A stretch of 37,779 nt of DNA from an uncultured Clostridia bacterium (lineage in GTDB: Bacteria; Bacillota; Clostridia; UBA1381): contig CAKSGP010000001.1 in assembly GCA_934454745.1 (NCBI GenBank), positions 1-37,779 on the forward strand. Reading direction: 5' to 3'. Shown one piece after another: positions 7,891-37,672 of the stretch (positions are counted from its first letter, which is position 1; each line of letters begins with the position of its first letter). A model generated the notes under the pieces. It did no database searches. It had not been told where the DNA came from and saw only the letters and a program-made list of their open reading frames with translations. Both the position numbers and the translations under genes were made by a program.

Positions 7891-8796
7891 ATCAGAGTCT
7901 CTCCTAATCATTTTCTTTGGTCTTGCTTAGAATAAATACCGCAAATAAAATCAGTATTATTCCGCAAACATTAAGCACACTTAAATTTTCATTAAAAAAT
8001 ACTACGCTGAAAACGGTCGCAGACATCGGCTCTATTATTCCGAGAGAAGACGCTACACCGGCAGGTAATTCTTTTAAACCGAGAGTTTGTAAGAAATACG
8101 GTAAAACAGATGTAAAAATACCTATACCTATAATGAGTAAAATTATTGCCGGAGGATTTTGTAAAGTCAATTTTGCCATACTGGGAATGTCTGCACAAAT
8201 AAGAGATAATATACACATTGTAATAAAGCCATATAACGTGATTGTAAGCGGATTATAGTTATATTTCATTGCGATTTTTGTCATAATATTATAAAAAGCA
8301 TATGCAACACCCGAAAGTAATCCTATAATAAGCCCTGTCGTATTAAACTTAAAGCCGCCTATAATTCCGGACACCAAGCAACAGCCCATAATAACCGAAA
8401 TTACCGCTATTGCCTTAATTTTTGTGAATTTTTCTTTTAAAAAAATTACTGAATAAAACATTACAATAATAGGAGCTGTATACATAAGCACGACCGCCGT
8501 AGAAACCGATGTTTTATCCATTGAAATATAATAAAGCGATGATGTAAAATATATACCAATGCCGCAAGAAACCGCGAGTAAAATACCCTTTAAGTCTGTT
8601 TGATAAAGCTTTTTATTATAAAAGAATACTGCGATTGCCGTAACAACTGCCGCCACAGTACCTCTCATTGCAATCATTTGCAATGGTGAAAATCCATATG
8701 GTGATAATAAATTTACAAAAATGCAGGATGCCCCGAAAAAAACTCCTGCCAAAACAACACAGAAGAATGCATTTTTTTTCATATGTATTACTTATA
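7850..8796. repeat. Copy 2 (intact) of the ~0.95-kb direct duplication (partner 2581-3525)
   Basis: See the copy 1 entry. This copy carries intact eamA-type and PIG-L genes. Confidence 0.85.
7904..8782 (-). CDS. EamA/DMT-family (drug/metabolite transporter) membrane protein
   Basis: 292 aa with ~10 hydrophobic helices arranged as two EamA-like halves. It is intact, unlike the copy at 2634-3511. Confidence 0.85.
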   Translation of the reverse strand: MKKNAFFCVVLAGVFFGASCIFVNLLSPYGFSPLQMIAMRGTVAAVVTAIAVFFYNKKLYQTDLKGILLAVSCGIGIYFTSSLYYISMDKTSVSTAVVLMYTAPIIVMFYSVIFLKEKFTKIKAIAVISVIMGCCLVSGIIGGFKFNTTGLIIGLLSGVAYAFYNIMTKIAMKYNYNPLTITLYGFITMCILSLICADIPSMAKLTLQNPPAIILLIIGIGIFTSVLPYFLQTLGLKELPAGVASSLGIIEPMSATVFSVVFFNENLSVLNVCGIILILFAVFILSKTKEND

Positions 8797-11597: not shown

Positions 11598-11616
11598 ATT
11601 TTTCCCCCTAAATTTT

Positions 11617-14727: not shown

Positions 14728-14752
14728 AAAACAATCTCCCTTCAATTTCTTT

Positions 14753-22869: not shown

Positions 22870-25812
22870 TTACTGATTCAGAAGAAATCGTCTTAACAAT
22901 GCGTCCTGCGTACCCTCTCCGGTCAAGTCAATAACACTGTTCGACTGATCGGCATTCTCATTTAAATAAACAAGATCGCATATATTTATATTTTCGTCCT
23001 TATTAAAGTCTCCCTGCTTATAAAACAAAGCGGTTTTGCCCGTGAAATCTATGTTAATAATATCAAGATCATCGCTTGTATTTATCGACATAATATCTGA
23101 AACCGAAAGACCGTTTGCAAGTGAATTAAAGTAGAATTTAATTCTGCTGAAGGATAATGTTTTTGAAACCGGAATCTTTACCCATCCCTCAAAGTTTTCA
23201 GGCAAGCAAATCATTCCGTCAGTTGAAACGCCTATCCATCCCTGCCTGTTCGTTGCATACGCCTTAACGTTTGACATATCTCCTACCGAAAGGGTAAATT
23301 TGCACTCTCTTTCGGTTTTTATATAAAGCATTATGGCTCCGCCCTCGGCAACGGTTCCTTTTGCGTTAATAGTTGAGTAAACAACATTGTTTTCATTTGT
23401 AAATACACCGTTTGCCACGCTGACATTACCGGTCACCTTTTCTGTAACCGTAGGAATATTGCCGTTTACGCCCTCATAGGAAGCTCCGTTTATAAAATGG
23501 GTGGGTGCAACCGTTGTAGCCGCCGATATATCGGAAAAAGTAACTGTGCCGACATCCATAGCCGCAGTCAAAACAGTAAAGTCATTAAATTTTGTAAAGG
23601 CACCGTTCGTTGTACTGTCATTTAAACAACCCGTATCACTGTAAATTGATGTAAGCGGAATTGATACTAAGCCCTCAAAACCTTTCGGAATGGTTATGGG
23701 AGCAATTGTTCTTCCCCACAGCTTATATTCTGTGTTTCCCGTGGATTTTTCCATCCATTTATCGGCGCAGTTGTCTAATAAATAGTACGGTTTATTTGGG
23801 GCAGTCAAGAAAAGATTGCTGCCGGTAACAAACTTATAATCGTCCGCAGTATCATTCTTCACATAAAACATTATTGAGCCGTTTTTAGTTAAAGCCATTT
23901 CATTACTCTGAACATAATAGTGCTGTGTTTTTGTAGTGCCGTCATAACTAATCTCACCGGATGAATTTGCCTGCTCTGTTCTTTTCTGTGTTGCAGTAAG
24001 GGTTGCGGTTTTTCCGCTAACCGAAATTGCAATATTTGATTGATTAAGATTAGAAGTCTGATAAATACCGTAATCCGAGGTCCGCTCTGTCTTGACTGCA
24101 GCAACCGTATCCGCTGCGGCAAACGGAAAATCGCCGCCGAGTGCTATTGAATTTGTGCTTACAAACACACTGTTGTTTAATGCCTCAGTATTTACAGCCG
24201 GATCTATATCGTCTATTAAAGTGAAATCGCCTATAACGAGGCTTCCGGCTTTGTCGCCCAAATTGTAAACAGAAAATCTAAGATTTTTAAGCTCTGTTAC
24301 ATTTGTTCTTAAAGAATTTGCAGGCAGCATAACCCAACCGGTAAATTCTGCCGGCAATGTTAAATAACTGCTGTCTGATGATAAATTTTGTACTGAATTG
24401 TAACCGCTGACTGTGGTTACAGACTTTTTCCACACAGCTTCATTAGCATTATAAGTATAATATTCTTTATTTGTACCGATACTGTACCAATTAAAAAGAA
24501 TATTAAAGTTGATTTCTTCCGTTGCGTTTTTATGATTTACATAAAACAGCAAAGCCTTATCAGTTGAATCCTGTGTAAAACCATTAGAGGCAAACAAGGT
24601 ATTACCGCTCATCATGGTCTGATAACCGCTGGCGCTGCTGAATTCAAAGCGACCTCTGCCCTCGCTTAATTGAGAAACTGAAATTGTGTTTAAATTTGAG
24701 TTAGTAAAGCCTGTTATGGTAAACGGAGTTGCAGAAAGCTTGCTGCTTCCAAGTAATTCGGCAGACTTATCTTCACCTACTGTAACGCAGTAAGAGCTGT
24801 TGTTTCCTTTATAATATTGGGCAAGCTGTTCTTCTTTTCCGACAATATCATAAAAGCCGTCGTATGAGTTCGTAAAACCGTCAAAAGAAAGAGAATTTGC
24901 AAAATAGCAACGGTTTTCGGCAAAATTGTAAGTTGTTGAGTTTACCTTTATTCCCACAGAATTTTCCACAGTATTTATATCTGCCGAAACAGTCATTAAA
25001 TTTGAAATTTCAATTACATTTTCGGTTGTAATCTTATCAAAATACAAATTGACTCTGTGCATATAGTTGCAGTTTGCAATAGCGGTTTTATTAACAAGCG
25101 TATCGTTGGGTATATATACCCAACCCTCAAAGCCTGCCGGAATAGTTATTGCTTTAGATGTTGATTTAGGACCTACACCGAGAGTAACATCTTTGTCAGA
25201 CCTAAACCATTTATCAGTACCGTCGGTAAGGAAAAGTGCCGTACTGTCTGCCATGGCAACATAACCCTGCGCATAATTTTCGCCGTTAAGCTTGATATTA
25301 CCGTTTTCATCAAATCCTACTGTTTGAAGTTCTGTGTAAAGCTTCGTTTCCTCTGCTGTTTTTCCAAGCTTAATATAGAACATAAAACCAACATCTTGTT
25401 GACTCAAATCAACAAGACCATCTAAGCCACTAAAGGTTGAATTATTATTTACAGAAGCAGTATAAAAGCACCTATAAATTGCTTGGTTTTTATAGGCTTC
25501 CACCGCATAAGCGTCAGCTATACTGTTTCCGTATTGCGGATTCCATGTGTAGGTTAAACGGTCGGAGGGAAGCGACTTCACAAGCGGCTCCTGATCGTTA
25601 TCTGCTGTATAATGTTCACCGAGGGTGGCTTTACCAGCAGAGAACGATCCTGCCTGCGGAAGTTGTGAACTTGAATATGAGCCCGATACTATATTGATGT
25701 TTTTTCCTTGAACAACCGCAGGTTCATTCTCTGCCATGGCTCCGATAAATATTTGCGAAACTAAAAGGAGTAATGCTAATAAGATTGCCGTTGATTTTGT
25801 GGTTTTTTTCAT
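22870..25812 (-). CDS. 980-aa secreted protein with 4 copies of the same repeat module and a C-terminal dockerin-like segment
   Basis: Signal peptide MKKTTKSTAILLALLLLVSQIFIGAMA. Module motifs are encoded at ~25100-25150, 24311-24360, 23641-23700 and 23161-23215. The C-terminal GDFNKDENINICDLVYL fits the DxNxDxxIxxxD calcium loop of dockerins. The second loop, DLTGEGTQDALL, is degenerate. Confidence 0.8.
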   Translation of the reverse strand: MKKTTKSTAILLALLLLVSQIFIGAMAENEPAVVQGKNINIVSGSYSSSQLPQAGSFSAGKATLGEHYTADNDQEPLVKSLPSDRLTYTWNPQYGNSIADAYAVEAYKNQAIYRCFYTASVNNNSTFSGLDGLVDLSQQDVGFMFYIKLGKTAEETKLYTELQTVGFDENGNIKLNGENYAQGYVAMADSTALFLTDGTDKWFRSDKDVTLGVGPKSTSKAITIPAGFEGWVYIPNDTLVNKTAIANCNYMHRVNLYFDKITTENVIEISNLMTVSADINTVENSVGIKVNSTTYNFAENRCYFANSLSFDGFTNSYDGFYDIVGKEEQLAQYYKGNNSSYCVTVGEDKSAELLGSSKLSATPFTITGFTNSNLNTISVSQLSEGRGRFEFSSASGYQTMMSGNTLFASNGFTQDSTDKALLFYVNHKNATEEINFNILFNWYSIGTNKEYYTYNANEAVWKKSVTTVSGYNSVQNLSSDSSYLTLPAEFTGWVMLPANSLRTNVTELKNLRFSVYNLGDKAGSLVIGDFTLIDDIDPAVNTEALNNSVFVSTNSIALGGDFPFAAADTVAAVKTERTSDYGIYQTSNLNQSNIAISVSGKTATLTATQKRTEQANSSGEISYDGTTKTQHYYVQSNEMALTKNGSIMFYVKNDTADDYKFVTGSNLFLTAPNKPYYLLDNCADKWMEKSTGNTEYKLWGRTIAPITIPKGFEGLVSIPLTSIYSDTGCLNDSTTNGAFTKFNDFTVLTAAMDVGTVTFSDISAATTVAPTHFINGASYEGVNGNIPTVTEKVTGNVSVANGVFTNENNVVYSTINAKGTVAEGGAIMLYIKTERECKFTLSVGDMSNVKAYATNRQGWIGVSTDGMICLPENFEGWVKIPVSKTLSFSRIKFYFNSLANGLSVSDIMSINTSDDLDIINIDFTGKTALFYKQGDFNKDENINICDLVYLNENADQSNSVIDLTGEGTQDALLRRFLLNQ
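24225..24738. repeat. Partner of the 20495-21008 repeat
   Basis: See 20495-21008. Confidence 0.85.
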
Positions 25813-25837: not shown

Positions 25838-28012
25838 TTATTTAAAGATTTTGTAATCTAAAGGCGCGATATTTTGATTTTCAAACTCAATTTCCTCATC
25901 ACTGTAGTTGCATACGATTCGCCAACCGTTTTCATATTCGGTAACACTCAGATCGCCGATATACTTATGGTCGGAAATTGCCTGATTTGCAAGCGTTGAG
26001 TGTATTTCCTTATAATCTGCGGTGTATGCAGTCATATTGTTTAAAAGAGAATCTACTTTTGAATTATAAAGGAAGTTTAAACGCGTATTTTTAAGTTCAT
26101 ACGGATCGCACCCCGTAACAGCATAGGTTGCGGACACGCCCTGTTCAAACGCCTTAAGTGCATACGCAGCTGTTTTGCTCTCGAAATTTACCGGCTCCGA
26201 TGAAAGCTTAATATACGAATGAAAAACCATGGCATAAAACGGAACGCTGTGGCTTTCTATTGAAAACCCGCTTGATTCAAGCGGTATGCCGTAAAGCTCG
26301 TCTGCCGCTCCCGCTATACAGGCATTCCCGGATTCAAGTGCAACGGAAATGTTACTCTTTTTTATATTTTCCATAGCTTTGATAATTGAATTTAGATAAG
26401 CTCCGCGGGTAACTCCCTTATCAGAGGAAAAGTCGCTTAATAGCTCTTCACCATAATGCTCAAGAACTATACCGGTGCCTTTCGGGATTTGCTTCAAAAG
26501 TCTTTTTAAAAGCTTTTGCTGATATTGTGCCGTATAAAAAGACCATGAGCCTTGATCTGCATTCCATTTTCCGTCTGACGACCTACGATAATGCTGCTTT
26601 ACTACGGTTTGATTAAGGCTGCTCATATAATCTTTAAATCTAAAGAAATCGAACGACCTGCCGTAAGAACGTTCGGTATTATATACCGTATAAACATTAT
26701 CGGCGCCTGCCAACCTTTTAAACGAGTTGTATCCCTTGTTTCCTCCGAGATTTGAAATATATTTCTCGCTTGTTATCGTTTTCGCTCCATAGCCGCCGCT
26801 CAAAAAACCGTAAAGAAAGAATGATGGGGCTGCTCCTCCGGATTCGGTAAGAGCCTTATACAACACGGTAAGGTCGTTAAAATCGGTAATTTTTTTAACC
26901 GAAGTAACGGGTATCCCCAAAACCACTTTTTTTTGCGGTACGGCGCCGAATGCCATAACAGACACCGCAGGAACGGCATCGTCTGTTTTATTTCCCAACA
27001 CCTTAGTTTCAGCAAGAAAATCTCTGTAGGTTCTTGCCATACCGCTGTAATTTGCATTTTCTCCGGAAAGCATATACAGTCTTACGGTAGGTTGAACGCC
27101 TATTGGTGCCGATTGAATTATATTAAGCGTGCGCTCGCCGCCGGAGCTGCTTTGAATGCCGGTCAAATCGTGTTCGCGGTAAACATACTTACTGCAAACG
27201 GTAAGCGCATTTTCAGCCATTTCGGCATTGATGTCGGCGTAAACATCTCCTGAGGTAATCACGGCAAAAAGCGCTGAATCATCTTTTACAGCACCGTAAA
27301 CCGGCAGCAAGGCTTTTTTGGCATCGGTTATAATAGGTGAAATAATATCCTGACAAGGGTCGCTACCGTAAACGTGTGCGGAATATGTGTCCTTTCGCGA
27401 AACCGAATCAGAGTAATTTATTACTGCTCCGCTGCCATCCGGAATAAATACATATCCATTCTGATCATTTGAACCGTACATTAAATTCGGCAACAATTCG
27501 ATATCAGTTATCTTGCTTTTTCCCTTTTCAGTCACTTCTGAGTAAACAATCGATATTTCTATGTAAGAATCTTTAAGTTTTACAGTAATAGGTACCGAAA
27601 ATCCGGTGCTTTCCGATTGAAACGAGAAGATAGTTTTTATTCCGTTTTTAATTTTTTTAATTTCAAAACCGGTTTCTCTGCTCGGTGCCTGAACAGTTGC
27701 TTCAATACCGTCATCCGCAGTATATGTTACACCTATTATTGAGGAAAACTTATCGGCGTCTGCAGTATTCACATTTTCCGGAAATGCTGTCCATCTATGC
27801 CCTGTTTGCTTATCAATAAGTATTATATTAGCGGTTTTAACATCAACGTAAAGTGCAGCCGAAGAATTATCCGCAATACCCATATATCCTGATAGGTCTA
27901 CCTGTAAGTCATATGGCTTTACTTGTTCCTTGCCATCTGCAGAAATATTTAAGATTGCCGAAGAGATTAATAACATTAATATACAAAGCAAGGATATAAG
28001 TTTAACTTTCAT
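25838..28012 (-). CDS. 724-aa secreted protein of unknown function (possibly DUF5696-type)
   Basis: Signal peptide MKVKLISLLCILMLLISSAILNISA. I recognise no catalytic motif. GYVFIPDGSGAVINY and the Yip1/ABC neighbourhood remind me of DUF5696 proteins, but this is unverified. Confidence 0.7.
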   Translation of the reverse strand: MKVKLISLLCILMLLISSAILNISADGKEQVKPYDLQVDLSGYMGIADNSSAALYVDVKTANIILIDKQTGHRWTAFPENVNTADADKFSSIIGVTYTADDGIEATVQAPSRETGFEIKKIKNGIKTIFSFQSESTGFSVPITVKLKDSYIEISIVYSEVTEKGKSKITDIELLPNLMYGSNDQNGYVFIPDGSGAVINYSDSVSRKDTYSAHVYGSDPCQDIISPIITDAKKALLPVYGAVKDDSALFAVITSGDVYADINAEMAENALTVCSKYVYREHDLTGIQSSSGGERTLNIIQSAPIGVQPTVRLYMLSGENANYSGMARTYRDFLAETKVLGNKTDDAVPAVSVMAFGAVPQKKVVLGIPVTSVKKITDFNDLTVLYKALTESGGAAPSFFLYGFLSGGYGAKTITSEKYISNLGGNKGYNSFKRLAGADNVYTVYNTERSYGRSFDFFRFKDYMSSLNQTVVKQHYRRSSDGKWNADQGSWSFYTAQYQQKLLKRLLKQIPKGTGIVLEHYGEELLSDFSSDKGVTRGAYLNSIIKAMENIKKSNISVALESGNACIAGAADELYGIPLESSGFSIESHSVPFYAMVFHSYIKLSSEPVNFESKTAAYALKAFEQGVSATYAVTGCDPYELKNTRLNFLYNSKVDSLLNNMTAYTADYKEIHSTLANQAISDHKYIGDLSVTEYENGWRIVCNYSDEEIEFENQNIAPLDYKIFK

Positions 28013-28031
28013 TTATCTACCACCCCCTTGC

Positions 28032-28736
28032 TTAAAGCCGGCGCACAATAATTTCACGGATTATATTCATAACAAAACTATATATTTGTTGGTAAATGCT
28101 TACAAATAAAAGAAGTAAAAATACAAAACAAACTATTATCAGTAAGGTCGCAAATACCGAAAATACTGTTTTTGTAACCGTATACTGATGAACCACCATC
28201 AATCCTAAAAATATAAGTATCACCGTCCATGCCAAACCGAAAAATGAAAAGAAGTTATAAAAGGTTGCCTCGGTTGTGGTAAATACATATGAAAGCACTA
28301 TATTCAAAGAAGTAAAAAGTATATACGGCAACAAAGAATACGTTAATGCAATCCAAATATCCCCCATACTTCCCTCACCGTCAACAAGGGTGCTTGTTGA
28401 CCAATTGCATATTGTGAAAATGAGCAGTGCGCCGATAGAAATTGCAAAAACGGTAAATAGGCTTACACCGTCATTGCCGCCGGGCATAAACAGATAGCCG
28501 GTTGCAGTTTGTTGCAAAAGTCTTACAATGAAAAAAAGTATTGCCATGGCATTAGCAATTATCATTGAGGATTTACCCTCATATTTCAAGTCGTTAAATG
28601 TCTCAATAGGATGAAAAAAAAGTTTGAAAGGATAAAGCAAAAACGACTTATGCCACCGAACAGGTGCTGTCTCTCTGCTGGTAATGCCCACAATTTTGTA
28701 TTTCAATGCTTTTATAAAAAGTTTTGTGTTTTTCAC
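28032..28736 (-). CDS. Yip1-domain integral membrane protein
   Basis: 234 aa. A cytoplasmic N-terminus (HPIETFNDLKYEGKSS) precedes five hydrophobic helices, which is the Yip1 topology. The start is a GTG at 28736, 9 nt after AAAGGAG. The nearby ATG at 28741-28743 is out of frame. Confidence 0.7.
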   Translation of the reverse strand: MKNTKLFIKALKYKIVGITSRETAPVRWHKSFLLYPFKLFFHPIETFNDLKYEGKSSMIIANAMAILFFIVRLLQQTATGYLFMPGGNDGVSLFTVFAISIGALLIFTICNWSTSTLVDGEGSMGDIWIALTYSLLPYILFTSLNIVLSYVFTTTEATFYNFFSFFGLAWTVILIFLGLMVVHQYTVTKTVFSVFATLLIIVCFVFLLLLFVSIYQQIYSFVMNIIREIIVRRL

Positions 28737-28752
28737 CGGACATTTCTCCTTT

Positions 28753-30216
28753 CTATTCAGATAGTTTCTTTCTGATCCACCTTATTATAAATATTATTAT
28801 AGCAAGTGCAGAAGCCCCACCGACAATTAAAACGACAAAATGATTTTGAACAAACTCTTTTCTGTATTCATTAAGTGCAAGTGAGTAAAAATATGTATCT
28901 CCGCCTTTTTCAAGATATTCCATTGCAAGTTTATATTCACCAAGATGATACTTTGATCTTCCCAAGCTGCAATATGCAAGAGGAAGGTTGCTATTGGCTT
29001 CTAACAACTCCTGCCATATCTGCTCAGACTCAATATATTCGCACCGTCTGTAATACTCCATTGCTTCAAGCAGCTTTTGCATATATTCGGTAGGAGAAAA
29101 CACCGTAATACTTCCTTTGATTTTGTCAAGAACAAGATAGCTTTCACCTATCTTTTCTATTGCGGAAATTTCCGAAAACTGCCCGTCACGGTCGCCCAAG
29201 CCGCCGAAAATCGCCATAAGGTTACATTCTTGGTCATAAAGAAACAGTCTGCCTGTTTGCCTATCGGCAACCAATATATTACCGTTAATATCGCAATTAA
29301 TATCTACAAATGTAGTGTTCTTATATGCCGACTGATAATCGCCGTATACTGTTTTACCGGAATTGGCAGAGGCAAACGTCAAAGTATTGGTTCCGGCAGA
29401 ATTAAGGCATTTTATATCCTGACCGGCCGCAACATTTTGTGAGGTGGCGTATATAAAGCTATCTTTGCCAAGACAAATATTACTATACGGAGCCGGCAAT
29501 TGCTTTGCAACGCCTTCTTTCTGTTCATCTGTAAAAAAACTTTTCAACAAAGAGAGCAGAAAGGTTTCAAATGTTGCCTCAACTTGATTGGGCGCAAAAA
29601 AATTCTTGAATTCATTATTCTCGTCAAACCGCAAAATACCCTGATAAATTGCAGACGAAGAAATCAGAATGTTATTGTTTTTATCAAGAATTATTTTTTC
29701 AGGCTGAAAAACAAAATTCTCATTTACCGAAACCATATTTGCGCCCGTGATATAACGAACAATTTCATTACCGGAATTCACAGAAATTGCACGGGCATTG
29801 CCCGTATCGCAAATATAGACCATTCCGTCCTCAGCATAAACCCCCATAGGATTTGAAAAGGTTTCAAGTCCATTTCCGCTTACTCTTTCAATTGTTCTGA
29901 TATGTTCAAATTTTTGATTTAAAACAACGATGCGGTTATTTCCCGTATCGGCAATATAAATTTGATTGCTCTTGTCAACAAATATATCTGACGGTGAATT
30001 TAATGCGCCTATTCCAAAATCTGTGCCGTAATAAACGGCAGCTGCGGTATACGTTTCAGGAGCAGGTATAGACTCGTTATTTTCGTCATATTGATAATTC
30101 AGCGGTGAAGGAAGTGCGCTTAAGGTTAAAGAACCTGTACAGATAATAACCGCTGCAATATAAGCGGTAATTTTCTTAAACAAATCAAATCTCCTCCTTT
30201 TGCTTTTTATAATCAT
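28753..30216 (-). CDS. NHL-repeat beta-propeller protein with a TPR-like segment and a C-terminal TM anchor
   Basis: N-terminal signal/anchor sequence. NHL signatures are IYIADTGNNRIVVLN, VYICDTGNARAISV, ILVADRQTGRLFLYD and others. A TPR-like region (AYCSLGRSKYHLGEYKLAMEYLEKG) follows, then the TM helix FVVLIVGGASALAIIIFIIRWI. Its start shares one nucleotide with the upstream stop (TAATG). Confidence 0.8.
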   Translation of the reverse strand: MIIKSKRRRFDLFKKITAYIAAVIICTGSLTLSALPSPLNYQYDENNESIPAPETYTAAAVYYGTDFGIGALNSPSDIFVDKSNQIYIADTGNNRIVVLNQKFEHIRTIERVSGNGLETFSNPMGVYAEDGMVYICDTGNARAISVNSGNEIVRYITGANMVSVNENFVFQPEKIILDKNNNILISSSAIYQGILRFDENNEFKNFFAPNQVEATFETFLLSLLKSFFTDEQKEGVAKQLPAPYSNICLGKDSFIYATSQNVAAGQDIKCLNSAGTNTLTFASANSGKTVYGDYQSAYKNTTFVDINCDINGNILVADRQTGRLFLYDQECNLMAIFGGLGDRDGQFSEISAIEKIGESYLVLDKIKGSITVFSPTEYMQKLLEAMEYYRRCEYIESEQIWQELLEANSNLPLAYCSLGRSKYHLGEYKLAMEYLEKGGDTYFYSLALNEYRKEFVQNHFVVLIVGGASALAIIIFIIRWIRKKLSE

Positions 30217-31064
30217 TATTCTTTAATACCTGAATATGCCATTGTTTCAACAACTTTACTTTGACTGAATATGAACGATATCATAGGCGGAAGCATCAAT
30301 ATCACCGAAATTGCAGCCGAAACACCCGCACGATCAATTCCGGCAGATGTTAATTGGCTCATCATTGTCGGTAAGGTTTTAAGTGATTCATCAAATATAA
30401 ACTGACTGCCCGTTGCATTCCACTGACTTATAAAGGTAAGAATAGCCAATGTAACCCATGCAGGCTTTACCGACGGAAAAACTATCTTAAAAAAGATACC
30501 CAATTCACCGCATCCATCTATTCTGGCAGCCTCTATAACATCGTTCGGGAATGAGCCGATAAATTGCATTACCAAGAACACTCCGAAAGATCCGCCGAGA
30601 GCCGGAAAAATCAGTGCCATATAGGTATTTATTATTCCGGTTTTCGCCATAAGGATATATTGCGGAAGCGCTGTTACCTGCGTACTGAAAAGAATGGCAA
30701 ATACAATAAGCTTATGTATTACATTTTTCATCGGAAACTCGTGTTTTGCAAGCGGGTATGCAGCCATAGACGCCAAAACAACATATAATGCCGTCGTTGC
30801 AATTGAGACAAATACCGTATTAAATATATACCTTTCCGTAGGTACCGTAGCCTGCGACTGCAATGAAATGATATCCACAAAGTTGTTGATCGTAGGATTA
30901 TAGACTATAAATCTTGGCGGAAACAGATATAACTCACTTAAGGGTTTAAAGGCGTTTATAATGGAAAAGTAAATAGGTAATGCGGTAAACAAACCCATTA
31001 TAAACAGCATCAATGAAACTGCTATATTACCTCCTAATGAACGGTTCAGGCGTTTTTTACTCAT
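30216..31064 (-). CDS. Carbohydrate ABC transporter permease (MalG-type, pair B)
   Basis: EAA-loop region EAARIDGCGELGIFFKIVFPSVKP, six TM helices, 282 aa. Confidence 0.9.
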   Translation of the reverse strand: MSKKRLNRSLGGNIAVSLMLFIMGLFTALPIYFSIINAFKPLSELYLFPPRFIVYNPTINNFVDIISLQSQATVPTERYIFNTVFVSIATTALYVVLASMAAYPLAKHEFPMKNVIHKLIVFAILFSTQVTALPQYILMAKTGIINTYMALIFPALGGSFGVFLVMQFIGSFPNDVIEAARIDGCGELGIFFKIVFPSVKPAWVTLAILTFISQWNATGSQFIFDESLKTLPTMMSQLTSAGIDRAGVSAAISVILMLPPMISFIFSQSKVVETMAYSGIKE

Positions 31065-31072
31065 TATCCCAC

Positions 31073-31969
31073 CTAATCCTTTCCCAAGCTTCTAAGCGCC
31101 CTGTTGATTACCGTCCAGGAAACCACCATTATAATAAACAGCACTACTGCCGTAGCAGAAGCATAACCAAGCTCAAGGCGAGTATTTCCATAGTCCTCAA
31201 TATGCAACAACAAAGTATGCGTCGAATAATCGGTACTTGGGTTTCCGGTAAGTGCTGCCGGCACAGAGCCTACTGCAAAAGAACTTGAAATTGTAAGAAC
31301 AGCACCTATAAGAAGCTGCGGAACCATCTGCGGAAGGGTTATATACCACAACTCTTGCCAACGATTGCGCAAACCGTCTATTGCCGCCGATTCAAACAAT
31401 GATTTATTAAGAGACTGAAAACCTGCGATAAAGGAAAGAAAGCTTGTTCCCATGCTCATCCAAAGAATAACCACTATTACAACATAAAAATTATAATTAG
31501 GGTCGGTAAGCCACTGTACAGGACTCTGCAATATTCCTGTACTCATAAATATGCTGTTCAAAAGACCATACGAGTCATCGCTGAATACATATGTCCACAT
31601 TACGTATATACTTCCTGCCAAAGAAGGTGAATAGAATAGAAAAGTAAGAATAGGTTTTGTAATCTTGCCGGTCTCATTTATAAACCAAGCCATAACGAAA
31701 CACAAAATATATCCTAAAGGTCCGGTAATAACCGCAAACAGCAGAGTATTCGCAAGTGATTTTACAAAAATTTCATCTGCAAGCAAAAGCCTGATGTAAT
31801 TATCAACACCCACAAACTGTGGTGTTTGAAGCATATTAAAATCTGTAAAGGATATCACTACCGATATTGCTATTGGAATAAGGGTAAAAAACACAAAGAA
31901 TACAAACCAGCATCCAAGCATTAAATAGCTTGCACCGTATTTGCGACCGAAATCGCCTATTTTTTTCAC
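31073..31969 (-). CDS. Sugar ABC transporter permease (MalF-type, pair B)
   Basis: ESAAIDGLRNRWQELWYITLPQMVP EAA loop, 298 aa. Its start overlaps the upstream stop as ATGA. Confidence 0.9.
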   Translation of the reverse strand: MKKIGDFGRKYGASYLMLGCWFVFFVFFTLIPIAISVVISFTDFNMLQTPQFVGVDNYIRLLLADEIFVKSLANTLLFAVITGPLGYILCFVMAWFINETGKITKPILTFLFYSPSLAGSIYVMWTYVFSDDSYGLLNSIFMSTGILQSPVQWLTDPNYNFYVVIVVILWMSMGTSFLSFIAGFQSLNKSLFESAAIDGLRNRWQELWYITLPQMVPQLLIGAVLTISSSFAVGSVPAALTGNPSTDYSTHTLLLHIEDYGNTRLELGYASATAVVLFIIMVVSWTVINRALRSLGKD

Positions 31970-34638
31970 TGATGTTTTTCCCCCAATCTAAGCTGCGAGT
32001 ATTTTCTTTCAAGCTCAGAATTTATTTCACGACTATATCTGTAAATAACATCACTTGGGTTTTCATACTGATAAACAACCCTTCTGAATGCATTATTTAA
32101 GTTTCTGCTTATGTAATAGTACGCCGGCGATAGTTTAATCTGTGTAACCTGACTCCACTGGGTCTCAAGGGCGTCAAGCTCTCCGGCAGACCACGATATC
32201 GTCTCCATAACCTTTTTATTAGCCGTATTCAATCTGGCTGAGATACCCACTCGTATTTCGGAATTGAAAGCATATTTTTCCTGAGTGTCATCGGAAGTCA
32301 CCCAATCGATAAACTTCATTGCAGTTTCATAGTTATCCGATTCATGTTTAATTATTACCGCACCGGTTACTGTACTGTTTACGCTGCGATTTAAACCGCT
32401 TTCGGTAACCGTTCCCGGTATAGGTGCCATTGCAAAGGAGTTTTGAATTTCCGGAGCACTTACCTTAAGGGTTTTATAGAAAGAGTAATCTGAAATTACA
32501 AAAGGCATCTGTCCTGTGCGGAAACGGTTAGTTGCATCATAAGACTTAGGTATTCCGTATTTTGTAAAAAGCTCAGTCCAATTTTTAAAAGCCTCAACTG
32601 CTTTCGAATCGGTAAGATTAGTAGCTGAAAGCTCCTCATTGTACATTGATACCCCGCTTTGCAAAAGCAATGAATAGAAAGTTTCTTCAGAAATCGAAAT
32701 ACCCATTTGCATACCATTGTTTTGCATTTTTGCAAGCAAGGCATAAAGCTCTTCCCAAGTGTTAGGTACCTTATATCCGTTTGCCTTAAACACATCGGTT
32801 CTATAAAAAATCATTTGAAACGACTGTGTCTGGGGCAGAGCATAAACTGCACCGTTATATGTAAAGCTTATCATTGACGACGGATAAAATCTTTCAAGTA
32901 CACTGTCAATATTATCCATTTCACTTATATCCACCAAAGCGTCACGATAATAAAGATCAGCTATATTTGTTGATGGCAGATTTAAAACTACATCCGGCGC
33001 TTTACCGGAAGCAATTGCCGTCATAATATTTGTTGTTACCAACGAAAGAATTACCGGCACACCGGTAGTTGAGGTGAAATTATCTGTTATAAGTTGGTTC
33101 ATAACTTGAGCCTGATCGCGTCCGAGAGAAATCCAAACGTTTAACGCCTCATCTGTGTTTATATTATTCATTGAACTGTAATCCGAAACAAAGGATCTTA
33201 AAAAAGCCTTGGTTCTAAAGCCGAGTACCGAAAAAAAGTTGAATTTTTTTACACTTGTTTCGGATTTTTCTGGTATCAATTCAAAATAATCAATTTCCAA
33301 AGGTTGCGTTTGCATTGCAGAAAGTACACTTGCAAGATCATATAGCTGACTTCGAAAATAATCAATTTGCTTGGCAATATCGTTTGGCTTTTCCGCCATT
33401 TTCAGAAGCAACCTTGCTGCTTCCTCAATTCTTGCAGATTGAGAGCCGCTGTTTTTACTATCAGCATTGACTTCGTCAATAATCTCATTTAGTGTTTCTG
33501 ATGCTTCTGTTAAGGTTGGTACCATTTCAGGAAGAGACGATTTAAAATCATAATCTCGGTTAAGATCCACGCCGTCTCCCACTATTACATTAATCTTGCT
33601 TGAAAGCTCATTCAGTTTTTCAAGTGTTGTTTTAAATTTATTTATAACATTCTGCAAAGAACCGAGTACAACCTCAAATCTTATTTCATGCTCGCCCTCG
33701 GAAAGATAAATATAGTAATCTCCGTTTTCGTCTCCGGGCACAAAGGATTTAAAATCGTTAGAAGCCGGAATAACAAGACAGTCAAACTCATCAAACGGAA
33801 CCTTGCCATCTACCGTTATTCTTCTCCGAACATCAATACCTGCTATTGCACGTTGACGGTATGAAAGATTAAGCTTGTATAATCCTGATTTTTCTACATT
33901 GACATTATAAGATACCCACTGCCCAACATGTGACCATGATGATCCTCCGAGAATATTGTAATAAATAAGCGAAGGGTCATTTGGATGAACATTCGGGGAT
34001 GAACGGTCATAATTTACAGCAACCTCTAAATGGCTTTTTTCATGAAGAAGTTCAGCTTCAATATATATTGTTTTCGCATCGGAATCTGTTGCAAATCGGC
34101 TTTTTTCTATATTCTTAACATACTCCGAATAAGTCGCCTTTTCGACAACCTTGTTTACAACGATTGACTTGATTTTCACGCCCTCCTGCAGCATCTGCAA
34201 ATTAAGAGTATGTTTGCCCTCGGTAAGCAAAAATCCTGTATGCCAATTCTCATCCTGCGGCATTATAACTACTGTATTTTCTTTTTCCGCTTCAGTTACG
34301 GTCGGACATAGTTCATTACCGTAATCATCCGTTTTGAAACGTTCCCTTTCGCGTGTGTCTACCCATGTGCGGGTAAGATCGTAAACCTGGTCTTCATTAC
34401 CGATATATGGTTCGTCCCATGAAACTGCCACCTGCGGGGAAACATTTCTGCCCTTTAAGGCAGTGTACGTAACATCCACACTGTAACCTGCGTTTTCCTC
34501 TATATTAAATATAAGGCTTGTTTTTTCATTTTCTCTCAAAGTAAATACTGTCTCGTTAGCAACTGCTTTTGCAGGCATTGCCGTAACAGACGAAATGCAT
34601 ACGACTATAACTATCATAAAAGAAATAATTTTTTTCAT
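31966..34638 (-). CDS. 890-aa extracellular solute-binding protein with a ~450-aa N-terminal extension (two CBM-like beta-sandwich regions plus a helical linker)
   Basis: Signal peptide present. IYIEAELL...GQWVSYNVNVEKSGLYKLNLSYRQ...GEHEIRFEVV resembles CBM6/35-type sugar-binding modules. From about aa 480, NVWISLGRDQAQVMNQLI...APDVVLNL...ALPQTQSFQMIFYR is a typical family-1 SBP. Confidence 0.75.
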   Translation of the reverse strand: MKKIISFMIVIVVCISSVTAMPAKAVANETVFTLRENEKTSLIFNIEENAGYSVDVTYTALKGRNVSPQVAVSWDEPYIGNEDQVYDLTRTWVDTRERERFKTDDYGNELCPTVTEAEKENTVVIMPQDENWHTGFLLTEGKHTLNLQMLQEGVKIKSIVVNKVVEKATYSEYVKNIEKSRFATDSDAKTIYIEAELLHEKSHLEVAVNYDRSSPNVHPNDPSLIYYNILGGSSWSHVGQWVSYNVNVEKSGLYKLNLSYRQRAIAGIDVRRRITVDGKVPFDEFDCLVIPASNDFKSFVPGDENGDYYIYLSEGEHEIRFEVVLGSLQNVINKFKTTLEKLNELSSKINVIVGDGVDLNRDYDFKSSLPEMVPTLTEASETLNEIIDEVNADSKNSGSQSARIEEAARLLLKMAEKPNDIAKQIDYFRSQLYDLASVLSAMQTQPLEIDYFELIPEKSETSVKKFNFFSVLGFRTKAFLRSFVSDYSSMNNINTDEALNVWISLGRDQAQVMNQLITDNFTSTTGVPVILSLVTTNIMTAIASGKAPDVVLNLPSTNIADLYYRDALVDISEMDNIDSVLERFYPSSMISFTYNGAVYALPQTQSFQMIFYRTDVFKANGYKVPNTWEELYALLAKMQNNGMQMGISISEETFYSLLLQSGVSMYNEELSATNLTDSKAVEAFKNWTELFTKYGIPKSYDATNRFRTGQMPFVISDYSFYKTLKVSAPEIQNSFAMAPIPGTVTESGLNRSVNSTVTGAVIIKHESDNYETAMKFIDWVTSDDTQEKYAFNSEIRVGISARLNTANKKVMETISWSAGELDALETQWSQVTQIKLSPAYYYISRNLNNAFRRVVYQYENPSDVIYRYSREINSELERKYSQLRLGEKHQ

Positions 34639-34665
34639 CGGTTACTCCTTTCAAAAGCACTGATT

Positions 34666-35643
34666 TTATCCGACAAGACCGGAATTTTCTATACTTCGGG
34701 AAAAAGATTTTTGAATTATTAAAAAGAATATTACCAACGGTAATATAAACAACAAACAAGCAGCCTGCTGCTTAGGAATCATATTATACATACTTGTATC
34801 GCTTACATAGGCCAGTGCGGTCCTAACTACTTCATGTATATTTTCTATCTGTAAGGCCATATTTTTGTTAGTCGGAAGATATGTAAGACTGTAAAAATAG
34901 TCTGTCCAATACCATACAATCGAAAATATTGCGCACAAGCAGAAAGTATTGGAAAGATTTGGTGCCATTATGCGTAAATACGTTTTGGTAAAACCGCAAC
35001 CGTCTATTAATGCTGCTTCTTCAAGTTCAACAGGTAACGAAGCATAAAATTGGCGGAATATCATTATCATTAAGCCCGATCTTATTCCTTGGCCTGTTAT
35101 TGCCGGCAATAAAAATGCCCAAATGCTGTCAAGTAAATTTATTGAAGAAGTATGCCCTGTTATTGCTTCAATCAACCCAAAAATGTCAAAATTCTTCATA
35201 AGAAGGTAATTTGACATATTAAGCATTTGCGGCGGCACCATAATTGTAAATACAACCAAAACAAAAAGAATATTACTTAATTTAAACTTAAATCTTGCAA
35301 AACCGTATCCTATCGTTGAACAAATGATCATCTCGGCAAGCGTACATAAAATCGTAATCACACCTGTTAAGAGCAACGGTTTTATTAAATTCAATTTCTC
35401 GAATATAAACTTAAAGTGTTCTACAGTAAATGTCTTTGGCACCCAAACGACCGTGACATCGTAAAAGTCTTGTGTTGCTCTAAATGACATACTTAACATA
35501 TAAAACAACGGATATAAAATCACATAGGCTATTGCAATAAGAAAAAGCCAACGAAGAAGGGCAGAAAACATTTTGCCGAGATAATAAACAGGAGATATTT
35601 CAAGGCTGTTATTGTTTCTGTTGAAACGGGTATTATCTGCCAT
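34666..35643 (-). CDS. Carbohydrate ABC transporter permease (MalG-type, pair A)
   Basis: EEAALIDGCGFTKTYLRIMAPNL EAA loop, 325 aa. It overlaps the upstream gene by 11 nt. Confidence 0.9.
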   Translation of the reverse strand: MADNTRFNRNNNSLEISPVYYLGKMFSALLRWLFLIAIAYVILYPLFYMLSMSFRATQDFYDVTVVWVPKTFTVEHFKFIFEKLNLIKPLLLTGVITILCTLAEMIICSTIGYGFARFKFKLSNILFVLVVFTIMVPPQMLNMSNYLLMKNFDIFGLIEAITGHTSSINLLDSIWAFLLPAITGQGIRSGLMIMIFRQFYASLPVELEEAALIDGCGFTKTYLRIMAPNLSNTFCLCAIFSIVWYWTDYFYSLTYLPTNKNMALQIENIHEVVRTALAYVSDTSMYNMIPKQQAACLLFILPLVIFFLIIQKSFSRSIENSGLVG

Positions 35644-36559
35644 TTTTCTTTATTCCTTTCTCTTTCACCGTTTCATTTTTTTTAAATATAAAGGGTCTGA
35701 ACACGAGAAAAACAATTAAGATTACAGCAATTATAAGCAAAAAATATATCCAACTCATTGCCGCCGCCTTTGAAAACTCTATTTTTGTGTTTGCCATGCT
35801 TACTATATACTGAAGAGCACTATTGTTAACATTTGTAAATGTATCAATAATCGTATATATTGTAAGTGCAAATACATACGGTGTGACCGTGGGAAATGTT
35901 ACTTTCCAAAAGGTTTCCCATGCCTTTGCCCCTTCTACCGTTGCTACCTCATAATACGATTGCGGAACACTCAGCAAAGCTATAAGAAATACAAGAATCT
36001 GCACCGCACTGTCCCATACCAAATCAGCCACCGAAGAAACAGTCGTGCTTATAACAGATATCAATCCATCCGGTAAACCGGCTAATGTTAATATTCTTGT
36101 TAGACCGCTTGAATCAAAAAGCGCAACTTCTTCCCCAGCTGTCATTACAACTTCACTTGAATTAAAATTAATAACATTCATAACAAGATCACAGCCGATA
36201 ACAACCGGCAGAAAGAATATTACTCTCATAAACGTTCTTCCGTGAAATTGTTGATTAAGCACAACCGCCGAAAACAAACTGAACAAAATTATAAACGGCA
36301 CCTCATACAAAAGGGTACCCATACTCGTAAGCAAGTGGGTTGTATAATAAGAGTCCTCAGAAATTGCATAATTAAAATTATCGGCAATTCCTTTAAGTGG
36401 GTTCAATACAAAACCGGTGTCCGCAATCTGCATATCCGTGAAAGCCAATTTAACCAACAGCGTAAGCGGCTGCACAAAAAAAATCAAAAAACCGACAATC
36501 CAAGGCAGTATATATATGTATCCCATCAAAGAACGACTTTTCTGATAGTTAAGCTTCAT
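35633..36559 (-). CDS. ABC transporter permease (MalF-type, pair A); first gene of the minus-strand gene train
   Basis: YEVATVEGAKAWETFWKVTFPTVTP EAA loop, 308 aa, RBS AGGGAGG 7 nt upstream of the ATG. Confidence 0.85.
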   Translation of the reverse strand: MKLNYQKSRSLMGYIYILPWIVGFLIFFVQPLTLLVKLAFTDMQIADTGFVLNPLKGIADNFNYAISEDSYYTTHLLTSMGTLLYEVPFIILFSLFSAVVLNQQFHGRTFMRVIFFLPVVIGCDLVMNVINFNSSEVVMTAGEEVALFDSSGLTRILTLAGLPDGLISVISTTVSSVADLVWDSAVQILVFLIALLSVPQSYYEVATVEGAKAWETFWKVTFPTVTPYVFALTIYTIIDTFTNVNNSALQYIVSMANTKIEFSKAAAMSWIYFLLIIAVILIVFLVFRPFIFKKNETVKEKGIKKNGR

Positions 36560-36771
36560 CCCTTATGCCTCCCTGTTATGTCTTTGATAATTATATTTTA
36601 ATACTATTTATAGATACTGAATAGATTAAATTTTTTAAAAACGCTCGGAAATACTATAATTTTTTAAGATTTTTGTTTTTTATATCATAAAGATATTTTA
36701 TATCAATAAAAAATTAGTCAATTTTGGCAATTGAAACTTCCTGTTTTCAATACTTTTATTGTAAATTCGGC

Positions 36772-36800
36772 TTGAATTTAATGCTTTTTTATGATATATT
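36772..36800 (+). promoter_or_regulatory. Candidate sigma-70 promoter of the AraC-family gene
   Basis: TTGAAT (36772-36777), a 17-nt spacer, then TATATT (36795-36800), in the 276-bp AT-rich divergent intergenic region. Confidence 0.35.
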
Positions 36801-36835
36801 AAAAAAGAGTTTAAAATTTTAAAATTGGTGACAAT

Positions 36836-37672
36836 ATGGATAAGAAAAACTTTGAAAAAAAAATAGCAATAGAAATAGAGCCTTCTATTTTTGACTACAC
36901 TCGTGAAATTGCAAGCAGCATGGATTATATTCATTTCCACAACACTTATGAAATTTATTTTCTTACCGAGGGGAAACGGCACTATCTTGTTGAACATCGG
37001 CTTTTTGAAGTGTCCGCAGGTGATCTTATCGTTATTCCTCCTCGCATAGTACACCGTGCTTTAAATACATTTGATACAACGCCAACCGATTATACCGCAA
37101 GATACCTTCTTTCACCGAAGGAAAGCTATATTCCTAACAATTTAAAAAAAGTCTTTGGAAAATATCATTATAAGCTTTCTGAGGAAGACAAAAAATTTGT
37201 GCTTGAAAACATGAAGGCTATAAAAAAAGAAATTGAAATTTACGATGAATTTTCTTTGCAACTTTATAAAAATCATTTATACTCAATACTTGTAATGCTT
37301 GCCAGAAACTATGCTGACCTTAACAATAAGGAAAACTTTGATAATAGCCGTAAAATAGGAACAGTAATTCAAAATATTATTGATTATATAAGCAAAAATA
37401 TTAAAAATGATATTTCCCTAAGTGAGCTTGCAGAAAGATACGGTTATACAAAAGAGTATTTATCGGCAGAGTTTAAAAAGATTGCCGGCTGCAGATATAA
37501 TGAGTTTTTAAACGCCACCAGAATTGCTACGAGCGCAAAGCTTCTTGTTACAACCGAATACCCCATAAAAACTATTGCGGATATGTGTGGATATAAAAAC
37601 ACTAATTACTTTGCAACGGTATTTAAAAAAGAAATGAACATGTCTCCATCGGAATATCGAAATCAGCTATGA
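36836..37672 (+). CDS. AraC-family transcriptional regulator (cupin-type sensor plus dual HTH)
   Basis: The N-terminal FHNTYEIYFLTEGKRHYLV...AGDLIVIPPRIVHR is an AraC-binding cupin. The C-terminal ISLSELAERYGYTKEYLSAEFKK...IADMCGYKNTNYFATVFKKEMNMSPSEYR is an HTH_18. It is divergent to the 32-kb gene train. Confidence 0.9.
   Translation: MDKKNFEKKIAIEIEPSIFDYTREIASSMDYIHFHNTYEIYFLTEGKRHYLVEHRLFEVSAGDLIVIPPRIVHRALNTFDTTPTDYTARYLLSPKESYIPNNLKKVFGKYHYKLSEEDKKFVLENMKAIKKEIEIYDEFSLQLYKNHLYSILVMLARNYADLNNKENFDNSRKIGTVIQNIIDYISKNIKNDISLSELAERYGYTKEYLSAEFKKIAGCRYNEFLNATRIATSAKLLVTTEYPIKTIADMCGYKNTNYFATVFKKEMNMSPSEYRNQL

Follow-up and report, generated by a model that had tools for sequence, protein, structure and literature searches.

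What are a beta-propeller protein, a Yip1-family membrane protein and a large secreted protein doing among the genes of a bacterial sugar importer? This question is raised by a 37,779-nucleotide (nt) stretch of DNA from an uncultured Clostridia bacterium (GenBank assembly GCA_934454745.1, contig CAKSGP010000001.1), here called the window, in which eight consecutive open reading frames (ORFs) occupy positions 25838-36559 of the minus strand. From the first gene to the last, they encode a pair of ATP-binding cassette (ABC) permeases (A1 and A2), a long solute-binding protein (SBP), a second permease pair (B1 and B2), a membrane protein with NHL and TPR-like repeats (NHL/TPR), a Yip1-family protein and a DUF5696 protein. 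We found the region to be the core of a carbohydrate-utilisation operon of an uncultured gut Clostridia bacterium, holding a self-contained cassette that occurs across monoderm bacteria. Our overall model, to which we assign a probability of about one half, is that the cassette encodes a unit for surface glycan capture, trimming and import, organised by an NHL-TPR-Yip1 scaffold.

Conservation of the cassette across genomes

The original prediction had named, for Clostridia and Paenibacillus, a recurring neighbourhood of such genes. One genome per species was searched with a DUF5696 alignment, using a closer subset of 23 sequences as the set of 106 was too divergent for patterns. At least 544 stretches were matched in these species-representative genomes and 80 loci were examined, their ORFs being annotated with iterated profiles built from the proteins of the window. 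Completeness was counted in the 51 loci with at least 7.5 kb of upstream and at least 2.3 kb of downstream sequence. All seven partners of DUF5696 (long SBP, both permease pairs, NHL/TPR and Yip1) were present in 49 of these 51, and one of the two incomplete loci showed only a swap of permease labels. Taken singly, A1 was found in 50/51 and A2 in 51/51, while B1 always lay directly downstream of the long SBP in related loci. The carriers belonged to Acutalibacteraceae, Oscillospiraceae, Ruminococcaceae, Lachnospiraceae, Paenibacillus, Cohnella, Gracilibacillus and Lederbergia, together with one Chloroflexota metagenome-assembled genome (MAG); the closest genome relative of the bacterium was an Acutalibacteraceae MAG. 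The dominant order elsewhere was SBP-B1-B2-NHL-(Yip1)-DUF5696-A1-A2, the order of the window, with pair A in front, being that of a minority (5/51). As the flanking genes differed between genomes, the eight-gene set is the conserved core.

The association held in the reverse direction. When metagenome contigs were searched with an NHL/TPR alignment, every full-length ortholog (about 47 loci) was found to sit inside the cassette, and DUF5696 followed immediately after NHL(-Yip1) in 37/37 orthologs with downstream sequence. About 30 generic NHL loci from the same scan served as an internal negative control and had no DUF5696, Yip1 or long SBP nearby; their sole stray label was one marginal 28-bit permease match. 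The linkage is thus near-obligate in both directions, and the outcome that would have spoken against it, accessory genes scattered independently of ABC genes, was clearly not observed. The cassette was also evident, under the family names that the original prediction had used, from RefSeq annotation in two cultured strains, Butyrivibrio fibrisolvens D1 (pNP243; DUF5696 protein WP_073386913.1) and Paenibacillus cellulosilyticus KACC 14175, and some MAGs carried two divergent cassettes (for example L005/L023 and L012/L047). The possibility that the genes lie together by accident in this genome, or through an artefact of ORF calling, is next to nil: nothing speaks for it beyond the ORF lists being purely mechanical, whereas every ORF has a significant family match, the same gene calls recur independently on other contigs and the cassette, with unchanged content, is found in hundreds of genomes. 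Chance adjacency was rejected on the grounds of the complete loci and of the reciprocal result.

The distance matrices of the components were correlated (r 0.73-0.91, with 0/500 Mantel permutations reaching the observed value), but such a correlation can arise from shared species phylogeny alone and was therefore not weighted heavily. The highest value with DUF5696 was that of A1 (r 0.91). In the sequence covered, three loci showed a reduced form of the cassette, with an NHL-Yip1 fusion, DUF5696, A1-A2 and a lipoprotein SBP that lies upstream in L078 and L091 and downstream in L126. Its retention of pair A, with which the value for A1 is consistent, suggests that, of all the partners, pair A has the closest tie to the NHL-Yip1-DUF5696 trio.

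Proteins of the cassette

Profile searches confirmed the families that had been read from the sequence, with DUF5696, Yip1, NHL, BPD_transp_1 and SBP_bac_1/8 all matched; the anchoring of the NHL protein at both ends, the extension of the long SBP by carbohydrate-binding modules (CBMs) and the missing ATPase were likewise borne out, as detailed below. One description that did not survive was that of the 724-residue protein as one without a recognisable enzyme relationship. Its match to DUF5696 (PF18952) covered residues 118-720 and profile positions 4-612/612 (E-value 3.5e-129, 432.5 bits against a cut-off of 25.6), and a hydropathy scan gave one N-terminal hydrophobic, signal-like segment. 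The AlphaFold2 (AF2) model of the protein (predicted local distance difference test, pLDDT, 92; predicted template-modelling score, pTM, 0.91) has an N-terminal beta-domain, a (beta/alpha)8 barrel and a C-terminal beta-sandwich, as in glycoside hydrolase (GH) family GH129. Foldseek searches with this model returned ZgGH129 (8.5e-30), NagBb (~5e-24), GH101 (~1e-19), GH36 (~1e-13) and also GH31, and its Foldseek alignments to 5opq and 5wzn gave template-modelling scores of 0.65 when normalised to the query and 0.71-0.73 when normalised to the target, over ~750 columns.

The relationship was also detected between sequence families. The single DUF5696 sequence found nothing among PDB sequences, and the Pfam GH129 model PF11308 gave no match to the DUF5696 protein of the window; we therefore regard the relationship as distant and nearer to the level of a subfamily or sister family. 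The DUF5696 family profile matched 5opq (2.2e-13) and 5wzn (2.9e-8), and hhalign of DUF5696 against a GH129 alignment gave 99.5% (E-value 2.3e-23, 592 columns). ZgGH129 and its Bacteroidota relatives are themselves precomputed members of PF18952, so a characterised enzyme already lies inside ‘DUF5696’. Judged by these profiles and by the model, DUF5696 is homologous to GH129 and the protein of the window is a probable glycosidase. An alpha-glycosidic substrate is our best guess, since all the characterised fold matches (GH129, GH101, GH36 and GH31) act on alpha bonds, and DUF5696 is most likely a retaining alpha-glycosidase, its activity and anomeric specificity being read from these relatives. 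One of the three accessory proteins of the original prediction is thus a probable glycosidase, but one that is obligately linked to the cassette, which speaks against a role of its own.

Residues D527 and E560 are the candidate catalytic residues suggested by the alignments. The construct numbering of ZgGH129 equals the native numbering minus 17, such that native D486, mutated in 8rzk (the D486N Michaelis complex), corresponds to the invariant nucleophile D469. The invariant E500 of ZgGH129 lies in a ‘GTEHG’ motif and is what we take to be the likely acid/base residue. E560 of the window aligned with E500 of the construct in two alignments. D527 fell within 3-13 alignment positions of D469, in a gapped and poorly aligned stretch where it was the only well-conserved acid; realigning the catalytic sub-region alone was insignificant (E-value 0.24), which makes the assignment of D527 tentative. 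The two acids are spaced by 33 residues, compared with 31 for D469-E500 of ZgGH129 and 32 for D764-E796 of SpGH101, the latter pair being taken from PDB entry titles. Among 116 cassette-linked DUF5696 proteins, D218, D192, E623, R536, N563 and N609 were better conserved than the candidate pair.

A DUF5696 profile search of 1.84 billion representatives returned 6,444 clusters (50% identity) at an E-value of at most 1e-3, and 3,818 at an E-value of at most 1e-30. Two longer cassette-linked members, in L114 (12132-17924, 1930 residues) and L133 (8667-11864, 1065 residues), carry large extra regions with no Pfam match, and many Paenibacillus members are of ~860 residues, an insertion splitting their profile match in two. 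Paralogs were also seen outside the cassette, at L088 21146-22223 (with faint GH129 and weak GH101 and DUF6259 matches) and as a second copy in tandem at L007 3393-5270, so not every DUF5696 gene is bound to a cassette.

The NHL/TPR protein (487 residues, or 476 if an independent gene call that begins 11 codons later is followed) gave a Pfam NHL match at an E-value of 7e-12 (45.2 bits against a cut-off of 20). Its residues 70-204 matched NHL propellers among PDB sequences, to 5e-24, with four to six matched stretches to Pizza designs and to the NHL domains of TRIM71 and PknD. TPR_2 (18.2 bits) and TPR_8 (16.5 bits) remained below the Pfam cut-off; residues 387-438 matched consensus-TPR structures at 9e-12, and the ortholog in L088 carries TPR_12 on record. 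A simple hydropathy scan gave transmembrane helices at 12-30 and 460-478, the cytoplasmic flanks of which are basic. In the alignment of the propeller, the conserved positions were those of the structural NHL motif only, and no obvious metal-binding or catalytic constellation was seen. The 234-residue protein matched Yip1 over profile positions 2-172/173 (E-value 1.5e-14, 54.7 bits against a cut-off of 28.6), and its five hydrophobic segments in the same kind of scan indicate five transmembrane helices.

These two proteins are often one. Yip1 was a separate gene in 47 genome loci and a C-terminal fusion to NHL/TPR in 31 (~40%), and about 21 further fusions were found among metagenome loci. Wherever a separate Yip1 was absent, the NHL ORF extended up to DUF5696 and reached a length of 670-915 residues, the C-terminal ~200 residues matching the Yip1 profile at 1e-46 to 1e-80 and adding five or six transmembrane segments. 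Pfam independently detected NHL and Yip1 in one chain in L044 and L084, and in P. cellulosilyticus RefSeq places a 719-residue ‘YIP1 family protein’ (WP_174812422.1) at the NHL/Yip1 position. The predicted topology fits a fusion, with the C-terminal transmembrane helix of NHL/TPR ending in the cytoplasm, where the N-terminus of Yip1 also lies. The fusion pattern is the strongest evidence that NHL/TPR and Yip1 act together and, as read from these gene structures, they are one functional unit. In one metagenome locus, an insertion of ~2.3 kb separates Yip1 from DUF5696 (L092 12090-14388), and its simple frame translation contains stop codons. An anti-phage defence reading was rejected, PADLOC giving no matches for the accessory proteins.

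It is here that a more ordinary explanation has to be considered, in which the locus is a co-regulated Gram-positive polysaccharide utilisation locus (gpPUL) with no supercomplex, the glycosidase, the importers and NHL-TPR-Yip1 acting sequentially but independently. NHL-TPR-Yip1 would then have a job of its own, for instance as a propeller lyase, lactonase or esterase or as a membrane sensor. Beta-propeller folds can indeed be catalytic, the locus combines the enzyme, transporter and regulator by which gpPULs are defined, and the catabolic genes around it show the variability familiar from normal polysaccharide utilisation loci (PULs). We nevertheless hold this explanation to be unlikely: the conserved propeller residues are structural, a soluble enzyme would not need two transmembrane helices, TPR repeats and a five-helix Yip1 module, and a fixed order with NHL-Yip1-DUF5696 kept between permease pairs at only ~25-35% identity would be unusual for independent functions.

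All four permeases showed the BPD_transp_1 domain in Pfam. For A1 the match was right at the cut-off (26.4 bits), accompanied by a weak UgpA match, six hydrophobic segments and an EAA-type loop, EVATVEG...P, at residue 204. A2 gave a UgpE match (4.7e-15) and the EAA loop EEAALIDG at residue 208. B1 (BPD_transp_1 at 1.2e-13) matched GlcT and UgpA, with ESAAIDG at residue 193, and B2 (1.5e-11) matched GlcU at 2e-24, with EAARIDG at residue 178. Two BPD_transp_1/EAA pairs and two SBPs, the second being p505 described below, amount to the components of a type-I (CUT1-like) importer twice over. A reading of the region as an exporter or a biosynthesis locus was ruled out, as all four permeases are of the SBP-dependent importer type with EAA loops. 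No Walker A or LSGGQ motif was present in any frame of the whole window, which leaves it with no dedicated ATPase subunit. An ATPase-like ORF was found in only 4/80 related loci, and in P. cellulosilyticus and L027 a ugpC-type ATPase gene sits right beside the cassette. Transporters of the CUT1 class commonly share an orphan ATPase encoded elsewhere, so the missing gene does not argue against function.

Sharing of an ATPase also lends some appeal to a role for NHL-TPR-Yip1 as a gate or regulator that senses the glycan and switches the importers on, or selects the permease pair for the shared ATPase. With the ATPase encoded elsewhere, the two permease pairs must compete for it, an ectodomain joined to a polytopic membrane domain resembles the layout of a sensor, and the Yip1-family protein YknW modulates the assembly of an ABC transporter. 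This role appears distinctly unlikely to us given that the module has no cytoplasmic signalling domain and that the cassette is not accompanied by any conserved regulator gene, even if sequence data alone cannot separate a gate from a scaffold.

In the long SBP, SBP_bac_8 and SBP_bac_1 were found by Pfam only in residues 513-790 of 890. Its AF2 model (pLDDT 89.3, pTM 0.85) shows an N-terminal helix, beta-sandwiches at ~30-165 and ~190-325, a helical bundle at 328-443 and a complete SBP fold at 447-885. The sequence matched Lin1841 (5ysb) at 8e-21 and the top Foldseek matches were oligosaccharide SBPs (E-value ~1e-19), the SBP domain resembling binders of sophoro-oligosaccharides, cycloisomalto-oligosaccharides, cycloalternan and maltodextrins. 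As this C-terminal domain filled the top 50 Foldseek matches, the N-terminal domains were not identified in that way and were judged instead by a Pfam tally over 52 homologs, of which 20 carried Golvesin_C, 7 CBM_35 (best E-value 2e-7) and 3 CBM_6; the CBM_35 match of the window's own protein was sub-threshold only. A CBM-extended SBP is therefore supported by these sequence matches at the level of the family.

The N-terminus of the long SBP is a signal peptide or anchor without a lipobox. The lipobox was mostly missing from its homologs as well, whereas SBPs of the p505 type were mostly lipoproteins (34/51); most long SBPs would thus need some other tether to stay at the surface. The p505 protein, encoded downstream in the window, matched the arabino-oligosaccharide SBP 6rjy (2e-6) and also 5ysb among PDB sequences. 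Its mechanically called ORF starts at a TTG (14760), and an ATG eleven codons on (within 14727-14760) gives a canonical lipoprotein signal peptide (MKKLKSILSLITAAVMIFTIAAC), with the lipobox IAAC following this internal ATG at residue 12; from the sequence, the internal ATG is the likelier start. A p505-type SBP flanked the cassette in 32/51 loci with enough flank, and its equivalents in L084-L086 carry SBP_bac_1/8.

A model for the cassette and its genomic setting

We propose that an extracellular glycan would be captured by the long SBP, with its two CBM-like modules and its oligosaccharide-binding domain as the means of capture, and then be trimmed by the secreted, GH129-related DUF5696 enzyme. 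The products may then enter by two separate CUT1 importers, in a pairing that we infer, with the long SBP serving pair B and the lipoprotein SBP serving pair A, and both importers would be powered by an ATPase encoded elsewhere. NHL-TPR and Yip1 would form a membrane-embedded scaffold or assembly factor holding the enzyme, the long SBP and the permeases at the surface. TPR and propeller domains are protein-interaction domains; it is this property, together with the fusion, the confinement of the full-length NHL/TPR orthologs to the cassette and the combination of an anchor-less SBP with the precedent of YknW, that leads us to a scaffold.

Several observations count against this model. Co-occurrence and co-divergence are also expected of co-regulated and co-inherited genes whose products do not interact, and the NHL propeller could itself be an enzyme or sensor instead of a scaffold. 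In the sequence covered, neither the long SBP nor pair B was present in L078, L091 or L126, so that the ‘double’ importer admits exceptions. Position 560 was acidic in only 47% of the 116 cassette-linked DUF5696 proteins, and position 527, Asp in 83%, was Asn in 11%; these figures and the ambiguous register of the nucleophile leave room for catalysis by other residues, or for a lack of hydrolytic activity, in part or all of the subfamily. Nor are the enzymes at the flanks the same in every genome.

A stronger form of the model, which we regard as possible but doubtful, is a cell-surface supercomplex or ‘Gram-positive utilisome’, in which a Yip1-anchored NHL/TPR protein would dock the GH129-like enzyme and the CBM-bearing, anchor-less SBP onto two ABC translocators. 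If it were to exist, a large class of bacterial Yip1 proteins would receive its first assigned role. More generally, the cassette suggests what a large group of bacterial membrane proteins of the Yip1 and NHL/TPR kinds may do, reveals a large unexplored subfamily of probable GH129-related glycosidases and lets one ask whether higher-order surface machines can be assembled around ABC importers. Much glycan degradation in gut and soil is the work of Clostridia and Paenibacillaceae, and the way in which monoderms link surface capture and trimming to ABC import is poorly understood in comparison with Sus systems. The cassette is widespread, sharply defined and experimentally tractable, with a conserved membrane module, and it is genetically testable in the cultured hosts B. 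fibrisolvens D1, P. cellulosilyticus, P. guangzhouensis and P. tarimensis.

The features of the locus are collected in Table 1. The eight genes lie on the minus strand with overlaps or gaps of 8-27 nt, as had been described; their junctions are, in order, -11, +27, -4, +8, -1, +16 and +19 nt, the first being an 11-nt overlap of A1 and A2 and the third a 4-nt overlap of the GTG start of B1 with the stop of the long SBP. As a unit of eight the block is only partly upheld: it is the conserved core, whereas the packed run goes on past 25838 for four more genes, with gaps of 25, 58, -8 and -8 nt, to 13243, and includes the second, lipoprotein SBP. The first real gap in the run (240 nt) comes beyond the p505 ORF. 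No terminator-like site was found between genes, all minus-strand matches sitting inside ORFs, and the 21 such sites observed were not above expectation (15.1 +/- 4.1 in shuffles). Promoter-like hexamers were present in the intergenic region upstream of A1, although such matches were not above shuffles over the scanned region.

Table 1. Positions in the window of the cassette genes and of the features that adjoin them
Feature	Coordinates	Strand	Description
Permease A1	35633-36559	-	308 aa, divergent MalF/UgpA type; first gene of run
Permease A2	34666-35643	-	325 aa, MalG/UgpE type
Long SBP	31966-34638	-	890 aa
Permease B1	31073-31969	-	298 aa, MalF/UgpA/GlcT type
Permease B2	30216-31064	-	282 aa, MalG/UgpE/GlcU type
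NHL/TPR protein	28753-30216	-	487 aa, transmembrane helix at both ends
Yip1-family membrane protein	28032-28736	-	234 aa, five transmembrane helices
DUF5696 protein	25838-28012	-	724 aa, signal peptide, GH129-related
Secreted 980-aa protein	22870-25812	-	Same packed run; clade-specific
Secreted 2096-aa protein	16521-22811	-	C-terminal transmembrane helix; clade-specific
DUF4874 + DUF4832 lipoprotein	14753-16528	-	591 aa; clade-specific
p505, divergent lipoprotein SBP	13243-14760	-	Second SBP of the system
AraC-family regulator with cupin sensor domain	36836-37672	+	Divergently transcribed
Intergenic region upstream of A1	36560-36835	-	276 nt, AT-rich; presumed promoter/operator

The divergent regulator matched HTH_18, HTH_AraC, Cupin_2 and AraC_binding in Pfam. 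An AraC homolog flanked only 14/80 related loci, other loci having GntR/LacI regulators or a histidine kinase, and the protein is likely to be a local regulator and not a conserved part of the cassette. Downstream of DUF5696, neither the 980-residue protein (25 nt away, with an N-terminal signal-like segment) nor the 2096-residue protein (transmembrane helix at 2051-2069) gave a Pfam or PDB sequence match. Their homologs were found in only one related locus (L001) and in seven, respectively, and we consider them clade-specific additions for this reason; they may be adhesins or novel polysaccharide-active enzymes. The 591-residue lipoprotein matched DUF4874 (1.3e-13) and DUF4832 (5.8e-19), has a lipobox-like FTGC and has homologs in four related loci. 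Further downstream, the window encodes GH4 and GH63/MGH1-like proteins, two PIG-L deacetylases, a GFO/IDH/MocA oxidoreductase, an epimerase and EamA transporters, and the setting is one of carbohydrate catabolism. In other genomes the flanks were GH38, GH43, FG-GAP, GFO/IDH/MocA, RbsD/FucU or LLM oxidoreductase genes, or plain housekeeping genes.

These flanks bear on another explanation, in which the cassette would recycle or remodel the cell's own envelope glycopolymers, such as secondary cell-wall polysaccharide, teichoic-acid-linked or capsular glycans. Its restriction to monoderm lineages would agree with this, as would L087, where no further GH is encoded near the cassette and its neighbours are housekeeping genes, such as those for ribosomal proteins, LuxS and an M23 peptidase. 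In most loci, regulators of catabolism (AraC, GntR/LacI or histidine kinase) and catabolic enzymes adjoin the cassette, the presence of two divergent cassettes in several genomes is typical of substrate-specialised nutrient loci, and the CBM_35/CBM_6-type modules of the SBP suggest the capture of an external polymer; we accordingly give envelope recycling very little credence.

Some further observations concern the remainder of the window. The EamA transporters (2634-3413 and 7904-8782) are 89% identical over 259 residues, the shorter copy lacking the first ~33 residues or having a miscalled TTG start, and the PIG-L-family deacetylases (4988-5710 and 7183-7911) are 47% identical; the sequences point to a recent local duplication of the EamA gene within a set of sugar-modifying genes. 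The GH4 ORF (11617-13002) overlaps the GH63/MGH1-like ORF (9900-11744, TTG start) by 128 nt (11617-11744). As the Pfam domain of the latter begins only at residue 265, its true start is probably further downstream. The left end encodes a Fic/DOC-family protein with a DeoR-type helix-turn-helix (1195-2223) and a DUF6883 protein (350-943), which are unrelated to the carbohydrate genes.

Comparison with known systems

Searches of the open-access PubMed Central (PMC) and bioRxiv literature for DUF5696, PF18952 and the YIP1/NHL/ABC combination returned nothing relevant, and in that literature the near-invariant set of two permease pairs, a CBM-bearing long SBP, NHL-TPR-Yip1 and a GH129-like enzyme has no described counterpart. 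We know of no linkage of GH129 enzymes to NHL/Yip1 proteins or to double ABC importers. The characterised enzymes of this family are ZgGH129, a DagA-type alpha-1,3-(3,6-anhydro)-D-galactosidase of Zobellia galactanivorans, and NagBb, an alpha-N-acetylgalactosaminidase of Bifidobacterium bifidum, with GH101 as a neighbour family. The DUF5696 protein is homologous to them and shares their three-domain architecture; the identity is only ~13-16%, and where the cassette subfamily has its best-conserved motif, G-Y-x-F-x-P-D-G-S-G, the sequence of ZgGH129 is P-Q-K-Q-G. This enzyme is part of a carrageenan PUL of Bacteroidota (PMC6923384).

The closest general category is the gpPUL as defined by Sheridan et al. 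2016 (PMC5320581). By this definition the window qualifies, co-locating enzymes presumed to act on polysaccharides (GH129-like, GH4 and GH63-like), ABC importers and an AraC regulator. It further resembles gpPULs in that the ATPase is usually encoded elsewhere, the flanking catabolic genes are substrate-specific and variable, and paralogous copies occur in some genomes. In a typical gpPUL there is one SBP with one permease pair and no fixed accessory membrane protein, whereas the cassette has two permease pairs, an anchor-less, CBM-bearing SBP of ~900-1000 residues and NHL-TPR-Yip1, in an order that is near-invariant across orders and classes of Bacillota.

For the Yip1 protein, the nearest precedent is YknW of Bacillus, an accessory subunit of the Yip1 family that is reported to modulate how the ABC transporter YknXYZ is assembled (PMC4887032); contrary to the original prediction, the family is hence not wholly unstudied in bacteria, YknW of B. 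subtilis having been the subject of that work. What the cassette has in common with YknWXYZ of B. subtilis and B. amyloliquefaciens is a genetic link, in Bacillota, between an ABC transporter and a polytopic Yip1-family protein, the likeness being drawn at the level of the family. YknYZ, an exporter of the MacB type that works with a membrane fusion protein, protects against the SDP toxin, whereas the partners in the cassette are type-I importer permeases and SBPs, with Yip1 coupled or often fused to an NHL/TPR ectodomain and a glycosidase in the set. The cassette contains no FtsX/MacB-type permease, ATPase or membrane fusion protein of the YknWXYZ type, which makes the two systems analogues only. 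Genes for a YknX-like membrane fusion protein and for a permease of the MacB/FtsX type immediately follow the cassette at L085 14234-18330 (Paenibacillus tarimensis CP166298). Proteins of this kind are the partners of YknW, the only studied bacterial Yip1 protein; their position here may be a coincidence.

With the Sus systems of Bacteroidota (SusC/D, surface glycan-binding proteins and surface GHs), the cassette shares a functional analogy only and no homology. Sus systems employ outer-membrane TonB-dependent transporters in diderms, where capture, trimming and import are encoded together and may assemble, whereas the cassette would serve the same ends with ABC importers in the cytoplasmic membrane of monoderms. 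Should the supercomplex form, the capture, cleavage and uptake of a polymer would be mechanically coupled in it, and it would constitute a non-homologous counterpart of the SusCD complexes.

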